Shown: positions 29,015-54,181, counted from the stretch's first letter. The stretch is DNA of 64,000 bases from Escherichia coli (GCF_003334355.1 NZ_QOWP01000012.1); one strand, 5' to 3'. The notes: generated from the sequence alone by a model not told the origin. Numbers and translations: made by a program.

Positions 29015-30112
<1,098 letters not shown>

Positions 30113-31230: not shown

Positions 31231-33381
31231 TTAACGCCGCCGACGGCGTGGGGATTTCGTTTTTTCTTTCTTTTTAACTATACCTTCAGGGACTTCCGGT
31301 TGCTCTATCGGAAATACCGGTAATGCATCCAGTAGTCGCTTGCCATAATTTTTGGTCAGCAAGCGTTTGTCGTAGATAACCACTTCGCCCCAGCAACCGT
31401 GGCTTCGAATCAGTCGCCCAACCTGCTGAATCAGGTTAAACGAGGCGCTCGGCAGGCTTTGCACCTCAAACGGATAGCGGTTGAGGCTTTTCAGCCATTC
31501 CCCTTCGGTGATCACCACCGGGCTGTCGATGGGCGGAAAAGCGATTTTGTGGATATGCACCTGGCTGAGCAGATCACCTTTCAAATCAAGCCCTTCGGCA
31601 AATGACTGTAAGCCCACCAGCACGCTGCGCTCACCGTTGGCGACGCGTTTGCGGTGCAGTTCAACTAAACGGTAACGCGGCTGATCGCCCTGAACCAGCA
31701 ACATCAGACGTAAATCCGTCACATAGTCGAGAAAGCGCTGCATCGCCCGTCCGCTGGCAAACAGTACCAACATACCGAGATGTTTTTTGCTCTCCACCTG
31801 CTTACGGAAAAAGGCCGCCATTTCGGCAATATGCTGCTCTTCGTTGTCGATGGAAGGCTCAACGCGCATCCGGGGAATAACAATTTTGCCCTGTTCGCAG
31901 TGGTTAAAGGGGGAATCCAGCGCCACAAAACGGTCGCCCGCTTTCTCTTTCAGACCACTCATCTCCTGCAAACGCGAAAAACTGTTCAGCGAACGCAAGG
32001 TTGCGGAGGTGACAATAATGTGCGGAATACTGCGCCACAGCAGCCTTTCCAGCTGATCGCTGACACGTATTCCCACGCAGTGAAACCAGAGGTGTAGCTG
32101 CCCTTCGCGCTCTTCCCGCGTCGCCCATTTGGTCACCGGTGCACCGGAAGATTGCGCCAGCGAAGCCAGCCGCCAGAGTTTGCTTTGCGCCTCGAACATC
32201 CCCAACGCGCGGTTCATCTGCAAAATCAACCGATGCAGACGTACAATGTCATGGCTGCCGGTTTTCTCACTTAAATCGTTAAGAAATAACTCCGCCAGGC
32301 CACGCAGCATCTCGGTGAGTTTTGCCAGCCGCTGGCAGATCTCCAGCACTTCATCTGGCAGTTCGCCCATCGCAAAACGGTGCTCTGCCTCCTGCCCGGC
32401 AGGCATGTAGAGATTGAGAATGTTGTTTAACGAGGCGATAAGCTCATACAACTCTTCACAATGCGCATTCAAACGTTCAGGAATCGCCAGCGGTGGGATG
32501 GTCTTCGGGCGAAACTGCTCCATGCAGGTAGCGACCAGTTTCGTGAACAAGTCCAGCTGTAGCCGATACCACGGCGCGGTGATTTCGGCGCTCATCTCAA
32601 GCGCATCCCGCGCCACATCCGGCAGGTGATGGCCTTCGTCCAGCACCAGCAGTAAATTTTTCGGGTCAGGCAATACCGCTTCGCTTTCCATCGCCGCCAT
32701 CACCAGCGCATGGTTTGCCACCACCACTTCCGCTTCCTGAATCTCCCGACGAGCGACAAAAAACGGGCATTCACGATAGTAGTAACAATTGCGGTTGAGG
32801 CAGCTGGCTTTGTCGGTACTTAAACGACGCCAGAGATCGTCATCTATAGCGATATCAGTATGATCGCGCAGACCATCCCATTTATAAGTATCGAGATCGC
32901 CCTTCAGCTTCGCACAACGTTTTTGCTCTTCCTGATTGTTCGGGGTCAGTTCGTCGTCAAGAAACGCCAGCAGATCCTGTTGCGTGGGTTCAGTACTGGC
33001 GAGCGCCGTCAGATTACGCGGACAAACGTAGCGCCCACGCCCAAAAGCGGCAGTGAATTTAAGATCGGGAATGATCTTTTTCAGCAGCGGTAAATCTTTG
33101 CTGTAAATCTGATCCTGCAATGCCACGTTGGCGGTACTCACCACCAGCGTTTTTTGCTCTTCGCGGGCAATGGCGATGCCGGGAATCAAATAAGAGAGCG
33201 TTTTCCCAACGCCGGTGGGGGCTTCAATCGCCAGATGTCGCCCTTCTTCTCCGGCCAGCGTTTTGGCGACGTCCGCAATCATCTGCCGCTGCGGCGCACG
33301 GGGAATAAAGTCGGGGATCTGTTCCTGAAGCGCCTTATACCAGGCGGCAATTTGCGCTTTAAGCGCGGCGGTTAATGCCAT
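31231..33381 (-). CDS. dinG: ATP-dependent DNA helicase DinG
   Basis: Translation from MALTAALKAQIAAWYKAL gives 716 aa with Walker A APTGVGKT and DEGHH box; the ORF-track 45-aa extension is rejected. Confidence 0.9.
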   Translation of the reverse strand: MALTAALKAQIAAWYKALQEQIPDFIPRAPQRQMIADVAKTLAGEEGRHLAIEAPTGVGKTLSYLIPGIAIAREEQKTLVVSTANVALQDQIYSKDLPLLKKIIPDLKFTAAFGRGRYVCPRNLTALASTEPTQQDLLAFLDDELTPNNQEEQKRCAKLKGDLDTYKWDGLRDHTDIAIDDDLWRRLSTDKASCLNRNCYYYRECPFFVARREIQEAEVVVANHALVMAAMESEAVLPDPKNLLLVLDEGHHLPDVARDALEMSAEITAPWYRLQLDLFTKLVATCMEQFRPKTIPPLAIPERLNAHCEELYELIASLNNILNLYMPAGQEAEHRFAMGELPDEVLEICQRLAKLTEMLRGLAELFLNDLSEKTGSHDIVRLHRLILQMNRALGMFEAQSKLWRLASLAQSSGAPVTKWATREEREGQLHLWFHCVGIRVSDQLERLLWRSIPHIIVTSATLRSLNSFSRLQEMSGLKEKAGDRFVALDSPFNHCEQGKIVIPRMRVEPSIDNEEQHIAEMAAFFRKQVESKKHLGMLVLFASGRAMQRFLDYVTDLRLMLLVQGDQPRYRLVELHRKRVANGERSVLVGLQSFAEGLDLKGDLLSQVHIHKIAFPPIDSPVVITEGEWLKSLNRYPFEVQSLPSASFNLIQQVGRLIRSHGCWGEVVIYDKRLLTKNYGKRLLDALPVFPIEQPEVPEGIVKKKEKTKSPRRRRR

Positions 33382-33395
33382 GAGAAAACCTGAAA

Positions 33396-33415
33396 TACTG
33401 TATAAACAGCCAATA
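33396..33415 (-). promoter_or_regulatory. LexA (SOS) box of dinG
   Basis: Minus-strand sequence TATTGGCTGTTTATACAGTA directly upstream of the dinG ATG; matches the non-canonical dinG SOS box as I recall it. Confidence 0.6.
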
Positions 33416-33500
33416 TTGTGGCATTTTTCGGTTTTCAGGGGTAATGGTTTTTCTGTTTCTGGAAAGCGGCTCGCAATAACCACCAACATAATGCGGTTTA

Positions 33501-33983
33501 ATGCCCGTTCGAGCACAAAGGATCCAACACGTCATGCAAGACACCATCATAAATTTCTACAGCACCAGCGATGACTACGGTGATTTTTCTAACTTTGCCG
33601 CCTGGCCCATCAAGGTTGACGGGAAAACCTGGCCCACCTCAGAACACTATTTTCAGGCACAAAAATTCCTTGATGAAAAATACCGCGAAGAGATCCGTCG
33701 GGTTTCTTCCCCTATGGTCGCCGCACGCATGGGGCGCGATCGTTCTAAGCCTCTGCGTAAAAACTGGGAGTCGGTCAAAGAACAGGTGATGCGAAAAGCA
33801 CTTCGCGCTAAATTCGAACAGCATGCAGAACTGCGTGCGCTCTTGCTGGCAACCGCGCCCGCAAAACTGGTTGAGCATACGGAAAACGATGCTTACTGGG
33901 GAGACGGTGGTCATGGTAAGGGCAAGAATCGACTGGGCTACCTTTTAATGGAGTTGCGCGAACAATTGGCTATAGAGAAGTAA
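33501..33983 (+). CDS. ybiA: N-glycosidase YbiA (DUF1768 / riboflavin-intermediate hydrolase family)
   Basis: 160 aa ORF recognised as YbiA. Confidence 0.85.
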   Translation: MPVRAQRIQHVMQDTIINFYSTSDDYGDFSNFAAWPIKVDGKTWPTSEHYFQAQKFLDEKYREEIRRVSSPMVAARMGRDRSKPLRKNWESVKEQVMRKALRAKFEQHAELRALLLATAPAKLVEHTENDAYWGDGGHGKGKNRLGYLLMELREQLAIEK

Positions 33984-50903: not shown

Positions 50904-52925
50904 TTACGATGCCGCGATAAACAGCTCACGCAGCTGATGCAACTGGTCACGAATTTGCGCCGCTTCTTCGAACTCCAGATTCTGCGCGTGTTGCATCATC
51001 AACCCTTCCAGCTCATGGATTTTCTGCTGCAACGCTTTAGGCGACATATCCATCGGCACATTATCCGGCTCAACAATCGGGCGCGATTTTCCTCTGCCCT
51101 TCGCTTTGGTTTTGGCAATGTTCTGCCCCAGCGCCAGGATATCGACCACTTTCTTGTTCAAGCCTTGCGGCGTAATTCCGTGTTCCTCGTTGTACTTCTG
51201 CTGTTTCTCACGGCGACGTTCGGTTTCGCCAATCGCTTTCGCCATTGATGGGGTGATCTTATCGCCGTAGAGAATCGCTTTACCGTTAACGTTACGTGCC
51301 GCACGACCAATGGTCTGGATCAACGAACGTTCGGAACGCAGGAAGCCTTCTTTGTCAGCGTCGAGGATCGCCACCAGCGACACTTCCGGCATATCCAGAC
51401 CTTCGCGCAGTAAGTTGATCCCTACCAGCACGTCGAACTCACCCAGACGCAAGTCGCGGATAATCTCCATACGTTCGACGGTGTCGATATCTGAGTGAAG
51501 ATAACGCACGCGCTCGCCATGTTCTTCGAGATATTCGGTAAGATCTTCCGCCATCCGCTTGGTCAGTGTGGTGACCAGTACGCGTTCGTTAATTGCCGCT
51601 CGCTGACGAATCTCCGAAAGAAGATCATCAACCTGTGTCGCCACCGGCCGCACTTCGATAATCGGGTCAAGCAATCCGGTTGGACGCACCACCTGATCCA
51701 CCACATCGCCGCCGGATTTTTCCAGCTCGTAATTACCCGGCGTCGCCGAAACATAGATGGTTTGCGGCGCTAATGCTTCGAACTCTTCAAACTTAAGCGG
51801 ACGGTTATCCAGCGCTGATGGCAGGCGGAAGCCGTACTCCACCAGTGTCTCTTTACGCGCCCGGTCACCGCGATACATGCCGCCAATTTGTGGAATGGTG
51901 ACGTGAGATTCATCGACCACCAGCAGCCCATCAGCAGGGAGGTAATCAAACAGCGTCGGCGGTGGCTCACCCGGTCCACGACCGGAGAGGAAGCGCGAGT
52001 AGTTTTCAATCCCCGAACAGTAGCCCAGCTCGTTCATCATCTCCAGATCAAACTGGGTACGCTGGGTCAGCCGCTGCTCTTCCAGCAGTTTGTTGTTTTC
52101 CAACAGCACTTTGCGTCTGGCGGCCAGCTCTTCTTTGATCTCCTCCATCGCCTGTACGATGCGCTCGCGCGGTGTGACGTAGTGCGTTTTCGGGTAGATG
52201 GTAAAACGTGGAATAGTGGAAACAATCTGCCCGGTCAGCGGGTCAAATAACGACAATCGTTCCACTTCCTCGTCAAACAGTTCCACGCGAAGTGCAATGT
52301 CATCCGATTCTGCCGGGAAGATATCTATCACCTCGCCACGAACGCGGAAAGTACCACGCTGGAATGCTTGATCATTACGAGCGTATTGCAGCTCCGCCAG
52401 TCGGCGCAGAATCGCGCGCTGATCGATAATCATACCGACCGTGAGATGGAGCATCATCTTGAGATATAAATCAGGATCGCCCAGACCATAAATCGCGGAA
52501 ACAGACGCCACCACAACCACATCACGCCGCTCCAGCATCGCTTTGGTGGCGGATAAACGCATCTGCTCAATATGTTCGTTAACCGAGGCATCTTTCTCAA
52601 TGAAAGTGTCGGAACTCGGTACATAGGCTTCCGGCTGATAGTAGTCGTAGTAGGAGACGAAATACTCCACCGCGTTTTCCGGGAAGAACTCTTTCATTTC
52701 GCCATACAGCTGGGCCGCCAGCGTTTTGTTGGGCGCAAGTACCATGGTTGGGCGCTGAAGGTCAGCAATGACATTGGCAATGGTGAAGGTTTTCCCTGAG
52801 CCAGTCACGCCAAGTAACGTCTGGTGCGCCAGGCCATCTTCCAGCCCCTCTTCGAGACGTCGAATCGCCTCTGGCTGATCGCCAGAAGGTTTAAAAGCGG
52901 AATTCAGTTTGAACGGTTTACTCAT
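50904..52925 (-). CDS. uvrB: Excinuclease ABC subunit B
   Basis: 673 aa ORF with Walker A GVTGSGKT and helicase motifs. Confidence 0.9.
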
Positions 52926-52999
52926 GAGTCGCTACCTGAAGGAGTTGGGCGGGCAGGTATGTAATTTTACTCGTCGTACTTAATTATGCCAACAAATTA

Positions 53000-53019
53000 T
53001 ACTGGATAAAAAAACAGTT
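53000..53019 (-). promoter_or_regulatory. LexA (SOS) box of uvrB
   Basis: Minus-strand AACTGTTTTTTTATCCAGTA upstream of uvrB, a CTG-N10-CAG LexA-type site. Confidence 0.6.
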
Positions 53020-53321
53020 CATCACCATAATATTTCTGATACAGCGTAAACTCCGCTGTCAATCATGAGCAAAATTTACTCTGTGGCGAGATAAAACTCC
53101 GGCCTTACCGGGTTATCCCCAAAGCAACGGCTTTTTTAACATTTGTCAAGATGAGTGATGACAGTTTTATGGCAAGAGATGCCTGTTCAGTGACTGCCAT
53201 TGCATTTATCTAACCAGTTAAAAAATAAAAGATATTTCTTTGAGCCGTCTTTAACGCCAATTCGCGTGCAAGCCGCGTATTCTCTCGCTTGCCTCGTGTT
53301 TTCTAACTCTAATACACATGG

Positions 53322-53344
53322 TTATCCACAGGAATAGTGGATAA
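53322..53344. promoter_or_regulatory. Inverted pair of DnaA-box-like 9-mers in the distal uvrB upstream region
   Basis: TTATCCACA matches the DnaA box consensus TTATNCACA exactly; AGTGGATAA lies 5 bp away in inverted orientation. Confidence 0.45.
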
Positions 53345-53503
53345 CTGTCTCCAGCCCCTATCCCCCGCCGCCTGGGCAATTCCCACATTCGCCGCATGAG
53401 GCGGAAGTAAAATTTTTTTCGTGATTATTTTAGAATTTAATTGGTTAAATTGCAGTCAATCGAAGACGCGATCTCGCTCGCAATTTAACCAAATACAGAA
53501 TGG

Positions 53504-54181
53504 CTACAACAAGGCAAGGTTTATGTACTTTCCGGTTGCCGCATTTTCTGGATTTTCTGCAAGCCAGGGGATCTCTCCCAGCAGCGGCGCGGGAATCATG
53601 CGGGTGAGCGTGGTCATATATTCAGCGTGACGTTTTCCCGGAGGCGTAACATCGTTCGCCACCCAACCCGCCAGAGTCAGTCCGGCGTGTTGTATTGCCT
53701 GCGCAGTCAACATCGCGTGATTAATACAGCCGAGTTTCACACCAACTACCAGTATCACCGGCAGTTGTTCCTGTGTTACCCAATCTGCAAAAGTGAAAGT
53801 GTCAGAAAGCGGCGTAAACCAGCCGCCAGCACCTTCCACTAACACCCAGTCAGCCTGTTGTTCAAGCGCGCGTAATCCGGCGCTCATTACCAATGATTCT
53901 ATCGGTCTGCCCTCTTGCGCGCTGATGATGTGCGGCGAAGTGGGTTCTGCGAAGGTGTAAGGATTTACTGTTGCGTAATCCAGCTGCAGGCTGCTGTTGC
54001 GCTGTAACGCCAGCGCGTCGCTATTGCGTAAACCTTCCGGGGTCTTTTCGCTGCCAGAGGCGACCGGTTTATAACCTGCCGTCCGGTAGCCTGCTGCCTT
54101 TGCGGCTTGTAAAAGTGCACAACTGGCGACAGTTTTCCCCACTTCGGTATCCGTTCCGGTGACAAAATAACGTTTACTCAC
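53504..54181 (-). CDS. bioD: Dethiobiotin synthetase
   Basis: GTG start gives 225 aa ([17 protein letters not shown]-loop); overlaps the bioC stop. Confidence 0.85.

Follow-up and report, generated by a model that had tools for sequence, protein, structure and literature searches.

DARS1 of Escherichia coli, whose description by Fujimitsu et al. (2009) is taken here as cited in PMC6868365, PMC5742627, and PMC6015884, has been positioned between bioD and uvrB (PMC4187155) and upstream of uvrB (PMC11317965). Its main documented function is the release of ADP from ADP-DnaA, leading to ATP-DnaA for replication initiation (PMC6868365, PMC5742627, PMC4187155). This conversion places DARS1 among the few chromosomal DNA elements that act catalytically on a protein. 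The core of a DARS consists of DnaA boxes I and II, which are opposed and separated by 5 bp, and of box III, which is arranged head-to-tail with box II; box II is of full consensus, and a degenerate box III' lies beside box III (PMC6868365). Full release of ADP in vitro requires a flank of approximately 42–50 bp beside the last box (PMC4585315; PMC5742627). The head-to-head contact of the DnaA protomers depends on Gln208, and ADP release is stimulated by DiaA (PMC6868365). A DARS1 deletion causes a drop of origin concentration and fitness, which is a non-lethal and mild phenotype.

DARS2 of E. coli, located between rppH/ygdT and mutH, is comparable to this element in that it exhibits the same order of an inverted box I, 5 bp, box II, 3 bp, and box III (PMC5742627), and also promotes ADP release. 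Its core reads TTATTCACC-5-TGTGGATAG-3-TGTGAAGAA, of which the spacing is that of DARS1, whereas the box sequences (TTATTCACC / CTATCCACA / TTCTTCACA) are unlike those of DARS1. DARS2 furthermore depends on a regulatory region of approximately 400 bp, in which IHF and Fis sites lie, and exhibits little activity alone, while DARS1 is active without accessory proteins (PMC5742627), has a flank of approximately 50 bp only, and overlaps a promoter. A partial likeness is found in the double DnaA boxes of nrdA, dnaA, polA, and purH and of datA and oriC, which are aligned head-to-tail with a 3-bp separation in the manner of boxes III and II of DARS1. DnaA prefers head-to-tail pairs of this kind in vivo (PMC11317965). 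The double boxes, however, lack an inverted box I at a distance of 5 bp, and ADP release is not reported for them. The same spacer also holds the cluster of the uvrB promoters P1, P2, and P3 with a LexA operator (Sancar 1982; van den Berg 1985; Wurihan 2018, PMC6015884), and the three DnaA boxes of DARS1 are at the same time the constituents of the uvrBp3 promoter (PMC6015884).

The bioD–uvrB spacer and the DARS1 core

The stretch of E. coli DNA analyzed here (64,000 nucleotides, hereafter the window) contains the uvrB coding sequence of 673 amino acids at 50904–52925 on the minus strand, which was taken from the list of open reading frames and has the same position as b0779 in NC_000913.3. 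The bioD coding sequence (53504–54181, minus strand; mapped from K-12 b0778, 812270–812947) is the last gene of bioBFCD and reads toward DARS1 and uvrB. Mapping of the K-12 annotation onto the window thus bore out the two gene names given in the original prediction. Between these genes, both encoded on the minus strand, lies a 578-bp spacer (52926–53503), of which all 578 bp match E. coli K-12 MG1655 (NC_000913.3, 812948–813525). This spacer was found in 5425 of 5426 complete E. coli genomes with 95–100% identity, and a 60-bp DARS1 core was present in all 5425, with at least 98% identity among the sampled hits. The RefSeq annotation of K-12 is empty across 812948–813525, and an Rfam scan of 52700–53700 at a permissive threshold gave only matches of chance level (E of approximately 1 or more).

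Three DnaA boxes of the core were located in the spacer. Box II, TTATCCACA, at 53322–53330 on the plus strand is a perfect consensus match and the sole perfect DnaA box in the 64-kb window. Box I, TTATCCACT, which reads AGTGGATAA on the plus strand, is located at 53336–53344 on the minus strand, opposite to boxes II and III, and contains one mismatch. Box III, TAATACACA, also with one mismatch, is located at 53310–53318 in the same orientation as box II. The gap between boxes I and II is 5 bp (53331–53335), and that between boxes II and III is 3 bp (53319–53321), so that the inverted box I, the two plus-strand boxes, and the two spacings are those of a DARS core. The locus is likewise that of DARS1, namely the bioD–uvrB spacer at 17.5 min with a sequence identical to MG1655. 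The pair of inverted DnaA-like 9-mers 5 bp apart, which had been noticed beforehand, is hence present, and sits 303–344 bp from the LexA box; that earlier reading recognized boxes I and II and missed box III. Boxes III and II together appear in a DnaA ChIP-seq study as cTAATACACAtggTTATCCACAg, which is listed as the DARS1 double DnaA box (PMC11317965).

The frequency of single boxes in the window is unremarkable. One perfect DnaA 9-mer is within chance, since approximately 0.5 are expected per 64 kb on both strands, and the relaxed motif TTWTNCACA is not enriched (3 found versus 5.3 expected). Both figures would suit the explanation that the motifs are chance matches in A+T-rich intergenic DNA. 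We nevertheless give this explanation no credence, because the three-box composite and the LexA score stand far above shuffled sequences (the composite TATCCAC-N7-GTGGATA-N4-TGTG occurred 0 times in 100 shuffles), blocks of the spacer are conserved across genera in the alignment A1, and experimental evidence on both DARS1 and the uvrB promoters has been published.

The palindrome of boxes I and II might also be read as an RNA hairpin, such as a terminator of bio read-through, rather than as a protein site. A terminator scan indeed flagged it as GTTATCCACTATTCCTGTGGATAAC followed by CATGTGTATT, and the predicted hairpin has a folding energy of −12.6 kcal/mol with a z score of −3.9. Its tail, however, has no U tract, and its arms are those of the DnaA-box consensus. 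In DARS2, boxes I (TTATTCACC) and II (CTATCCACA) are DnaA-box-like and yet non-complementary at three of nine positions, which indicates that pairing is not the conserved property. DnaA footprints and a ChIP signal at the locus upstream of uvrB (PMC6015884; PMC11317965) also speak for a protein site, and we regard an RNA hairpin as the least probable of the functional readings, with hardly any weight left to it.

The inverted boxes are therefore almost certainly the core of DARS1, which together with its flank spans 53265–53344, and the LexA box described below is the SOS operator already known for uvrB, the two systems being superimposed in one spacer. No feature of the sequence contradicts the assignment to DARS1. 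Comparison with DARS1 of K-12 revealed the same locus, a 100% identical sequence, and the same flanking genes, box orientation, and spacing, without any difference. The features of the bioD–uvrB spacer are hence real, though they are already on record in the literature for this very sequence, and their recovery adds nothing new. It can be regarded as a positive control, in which a real regulatory element was recovered from raw sequence without tools. Our own analysis covers sequence identity, box architecture, statistics, and conservation, while the statements on binding, ADP release, repression, and phenotypes are those of the literature.

On the uvrB side of box III lies the flank of DARS1 (53265–53309, minus strand), whose limits were deduced from the numbering 198–239 in PMC4585315. 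It contains box III', TTAGAAAAC, 3 bp past box III, and the block AAGCGAGAG..ACGCGGCTTGC, and is conserved across Enterobacterales in the alignment A1. In the mechanism published for this element (PMC6868365), which is situated approximately 400 bp upstream of uvrB, the boxes act together. The inverted box I, box II at 5 bp, and box III at a further 3 bp are followed by a stimulatory flank of approximately 45 bp. ADP-DnaA binds to the perfect box II and recruits protomers to box I in a head-to-head and to box III in a head-to-tail manner. [quoted passage not shown] The resultant apo-DnaA dissociates and rebinds ATP, which supplies more ATP-DnaA for the next initiation at oriC.

The deletion allele of DARS1 used in PMC4585315 and also in later studies was mapped through its primers to 53051–53491 (441 bp). 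It removes almost the whole spacer, taking the hairpin after bioD, the core, P3, and the downstream conserved blocks together. Since this deletion far exceeds the core, the in vivo phenotypes reported with it do not isolate the three boxes.

Promoters of uvrB and the LexA operator

The LexA operator (SOS box) of uvrB was located at 53000–53019 on the minus strand, reading TACTGGATAAAAAAACAGTT on the plus strand and AACTGTTTTTTTATCCAGTA on the sense strand, with a CTG-N10-CAG palindrome and an A+T-rich center. A weight matrix was constructed from 18 known E. coli SOS boxes, which were drawn from published compilations and from which uvrB was excluded. The box CTGTTTTTTTATCCAG scored 23.2 bits with this matrix and ranked first among the 64,000 positions of the window (mean −26, standard deviation 9), and this value falls in the range of the training sites (13–27). 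The scan, which had been proposed as a check of the original prediction, thus returned the predicted LexA box as the best match in the window, and its sequence is identical to the published uvrB operator AACTGTTTTTTTATCCAGTA (PMC6015884). The operator also overlaps a promoter, and its position is kept in relatives.

The second-best match to the matrix was TACTGTATAAACAGCCAATA at 33396–33415, which precedes the start expected for the long open reading frame 31231–33516 on the minus strand by 15 bp. This frame is dinG by its K-12 coordinates, and TACTGTATAAACAGCCAATA matches the published dinG SOS box, which is part of the training set, so that its score is not independent.

A multi-promoter control region of uvrB had also been anticipated, and this agrees with the three published promoters, the distal one being P3 (PMC6015884). 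A promoter scan assigned P1 to 52964–52992 on the minus strand, with the −35 hexamer TTGGCA (52992–52987), a 17-bp spacer, and the −10 hexamer TAAAAT (52969–52964), giving 10 of 12 matches, and from these positions we infer a start near 52957. The P1 hexamers are conserved in Enterobacteriaceae in the alignment A1. The independence of P1 from LexA is reportedly among the findings of Sancar 1982, and it is stated for this uvrB promoter in PMC6015884 as well. The −10 hexamer of P2, TATAAT, was read from the sequence at 52996–53001 on the minus strand and shares 2 bp with the LexA box, which in turn lies 8 bp upstream of the P1 −35 hexamer. This is in line with the location of LexA-box1 between the −35 and −10 elements of uvrBp2 (PMC6015884). 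LexA binds tightly to this SOS box of P2, whereas its binding to three degenerate boxes that lie further upstream is weaker (PMC6015884). P3 was assigned approximately to 53300–53340 on the minus strand, overlapping DARS1, on the basis of PMC6015884, and a uvrB promoter fragment from −567 to −280 is active (PMC6015884). The hexamers of both P2 and P3 have an approximate placement only. P3 reportedly lies approximately 320 bp upstream of P2 (Sancar 1982; van den Berg 1985). Comparison of the whole cluster with its published form (Sancar 1982; van den Berg 1985; Wurihan 2018, PMC6015884) gave an identical sequence without any difference.

In the regulation described for this region, P3 overlaps DARS1 and is repressed by DnaA bound there, P2 is repressed by LexA at 53000–53019, and P1 just downstream provides basal expression. 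DNase I footprints of DnaA on DARS1 and of LexA on LexA-box1 have been reported, together with promoter mutations that behave as expected (PMC6015884). Lying atop a promoter of an SOS-regulated DNA-repair gene, DARS1 links replication initiation with repair.

The inverted pair had been read beforehand as a DnaA site of the distal promoter. This holds insofar as P3 carries DnaA boxes and is repressed by DnaA; box II corresponds to DnaA-box6, of which a TG-to-CA mutation derepresses P3 5.9-fold (PMC6015884), and uvrB figures in a list of genes under negative control by DnaA (PMC11317965). It is incomplete in that the pair is the core of DARS1. The stronger claim that the boxes are nothing but an operator of P3, with no part in the nucleotide exchange of DnaA, appears very improbable to us, if marginally less so than the RNA hairpin. 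The same boxes are the experimentally defined core of DARS1, with ADP release in vitro and an effect on initiation in vivo; an identical three-box geometry is found in DARS2 beside mutH; the geometry recurs at more than 120 proteobacterial sites, mostly away from uvrB; and a head-to-head box I would be superfluous for a simple operator. The inverted pair is hence better named DARS1, with three boxes, than merely a DnaA site of P3.

A further hairpin, CCGGTAAGGCCGG followed by AGTTTTATCT at 53099–53111 in the P3 leader, was considered and rejected, as its fold is no better than that of shuffled sequences (z score of −0.47). Its GTTTTAT tail is conserved in the alignment A1.

The inverted repeat after bioD and the secondary DnaA box

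A 13-bp inverted repeat was found at 53441–53492 on the minus strand, starting 12 nt past the bioD stop codon. Its arms are TTGGTTAAATTGC (53441–53453) and GCAATTTAACCAA (53480–53492), which enclose a 26-nt loop with a GATC sequence. The repeat exists as originally described, perfect and with a long loop, except that the coordinates given for it (53425–53476) were approximately 16 bp too low. It had also been suggested as the bioD terminator; it is predicted to fold into a stable hairpin, but it fails an intrinsic-terminator scan. We consider this repeat as a candidate 3' hairpin of bioBFCD, either a terminator or a stabilizing structure, that would shield DARS1 from read-through, a role that we think possible but somewhat doubtful. 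Apart from its position, it is supported by the predicted RNA fold of a 62-nt stretch (−20.9 kcal/mol, z score of −4.1), and by the rarity of perfect 13-bp inverted repeats within 60 bp, of which we estimate that approximately 5e-4 are expected in 578 bp. All three substitutions in its arms (two in E. albertii and one in E. coli 3-72) lead to G·U pairs in the sense RNA, though three such wobble-preserving SNPs have a chance of approximately 1 in 8. A loss of DARS1 activity upon transcription across the element has been reported (PMC5010248), and a terminator after bioD would for this reason be functionally sensible.

Several observations weaken the candidate. The stem is rich in A+U, with G–C at 4 of its 13 pairs, the loop is 26 nt in length, and the tail UUAAAUUCU provides no proper U tract; the intrinsic-terminator scan, which looked for a G+C-rich stem, a 3–8 nt loop, and a U tract, accordingly did not report 53441–53492. 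The z score of the fold is only −1.5 in a 111-nt context, and the repeat is absent from Citrobacter, though bioD is adjacent there too. The supplementary 3'-end tables of PMC7815308 that were searched list no bioD 3' end. This says little, since rich medium allows only poor expression of the bio operon, and bio expression was low in the growth conditions of that study. A literature search on the bioBFCD terminator gave nothing useful.

The repeat is specific to Escherichia, where E. albertii keeps it, and is present in a single copy per E. coli genome. Membership in a repeat family was dismissed on account of this single copy; the other match in the window, at 29894–29906, has 2 mismatches and is at chance level. 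An operator for BirA (bioO) was also dismissed, as the arms TTGGTTAAATTGC and GCAATTTAACCAA are without the half-sites TTGTAAACC and GGTTTACAA; the bioO in the window reads CTTGTAAACCAAATTGAAAAGATTTAGGTTTACAAG. In Providencia, a canonical terminator was found at the position corresponding to the E. coli repeat.

Between P3 and P2, a DnaA box with one mismatch, TTATCCCCA, was located at 53113–53121 on the plus strand. It lies in the block TTTGGGGATAAC, which is conserved in six of seven Enterobacterales in the alignment A1, and it probably corresponds to one of the additional DnaA boxes 2–4 of PMC6015884. In vivo, DnaA was found upstream of uvrB by ChIP-seq, with a peak named DARS1 that is centered at 813,331 (PMC11317965). 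The other coordinates tabulated in that study fit NC_000913.3, as tested with the DARS2 boxes, and 813,331 corresponds to position 53120 of the window. This is located on TTATCCCCA, approximately 200 bp to the uvrB side of the DARS1 core, rather than on the core itself. The offset may reflect imprecise peak calling, or it may reflect stable binding of DnaA to the secondary boxes of PMC6015884.

It is conceivable, though we hold it to be improbable, that the spacer contains more than the two published systems, either a weak non-canonical bioD terminator hairpin or TTTGGGGATAAC as a stable in vivo DnaA site with a role of its own. If the former were true, biotin limitation would derepress bio, read-through would enter DARS1, and less DnaA would be reactivated, so that read-through of the hairpin would tie the supply of biotin and lipid to replication initiation. 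The 53051–53491 deletion removes the hairpin and TTTGGGGATAAC along with the core, and hence the published phenotypes are compatible with either idea.

Conservation of the three-box core

The three-box pattern was searched for in one genome per species, which gave at least 120 loci, while by our own estimate approximately 10 are expected by chance in the collection. The matches listed belong to Gammaproteobacteria, Betaproteobacteria, and some Alphaproteobacteria, with one Zetaproteobacterium (Mariprofundaceae) and one metagenome-assembled genome (MAG) of Bacteroidota (Raineya). As these loci were picked by the three-box pattern itself, the sampling is biased. The positions left free by the pattern follow the DnaA-box consensus too. 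Among the 122 cores listed, 112 have a perfect box II, 68 a perfect box I, and 46 a box I with a single mismatch.

Linkage to uvrB was found in at least 13 genomes other than E. coli among the matches listed, in which the core has the same orientation and is located 311–608 bp upstream of uvrB. The Enterobacterales among them are Citrobacter, two Enterobacter, Photorhabdus, Acerihabitans, and an uncultured member of the order, and the others are two Vibrio, two Shewanella, Rodentibacter, two Haemophilus, and an unclassified gammaproteobacterial MAG. In Enterobacter Ag1, Enterobacter Bisph1, and Photorhabdus, DARS1 has a divergent gene upstream instead of bioD. At one Psychromonas locus, rppH and mutH enclose the core, as is the case for DARS2.

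LexA boxes of 12–24 bits were detected at −55 to −114 from the uvrB ATG in Citrobacter, Enterobacter, Photorhabdus, Acerihabitans, and Vibrio. No such box was detected upstream of uvrB at the three Pasteurellaceae and two Shewanella loci, where the best match was below 8 bits. As the core is kept in Pasteurellaceae and Shewanella without a LexA box, the triple of DnaA boxes is the more deeply conserved partner of uvrB, and the link between the DnaA boxes and uvrB is older, or more constrained, than the SOS control of this gene.

An alignment of seven genera (A1) showed where the spacer itself is conserved. The strongest block is AGTTATCCACTATTCCTGTGGATAACC-TGTG-ATTAG-GTTAGAAAAC, and further blocks are AAGCGAGAG..CGCGGCTTGC, CTTGACAAATGTTAAAA, TTTGGGGATAAC, the LexA box, and the P1 hexamers. 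The core of DARS1 together with its flank forms the longest invariant block in this alignment and also within Escherichia. In the latter, 53298–53347 is invariant among the aligned variants, and box I is unchanged among the aligned E. coli variants and in E. albertii.

DARS-like cores were also observed away from uvrB. Pseudomonas species share one conserved core, ggTTATCCACAcaaatTGTGGATAACCTTGTGaacagagcc, at 11 of the loci, which is linked to neither uvrB nor mutH. At least 8 DARS-like three-box cores were found in Legionella nagasakiensis and at least 5 in L. rowbothamii. In both Pseudomonas and Legionella, the neighbors of the cores are unrelated, and no link to uvrB was found. The Legionella copies share a common flanking sequence among their unrelated neighbor genes, resembling a dispersed repeat.

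Two E. coli strains have insertions in the spacer. In strain ZH063, a prophage resides inside the spacer at approximately 53158, between DARS1 and the proximal uvrB promoters, with a terminase gene near the junction. In strain VL7S7, an IS1 element has entered the spacer directly upstream of the LexA box, where it duplicated 9 bp of target sequence, ATGGTGATG (53020–53028 of the window), and parts DARS1 and P3 from P1 and P2.
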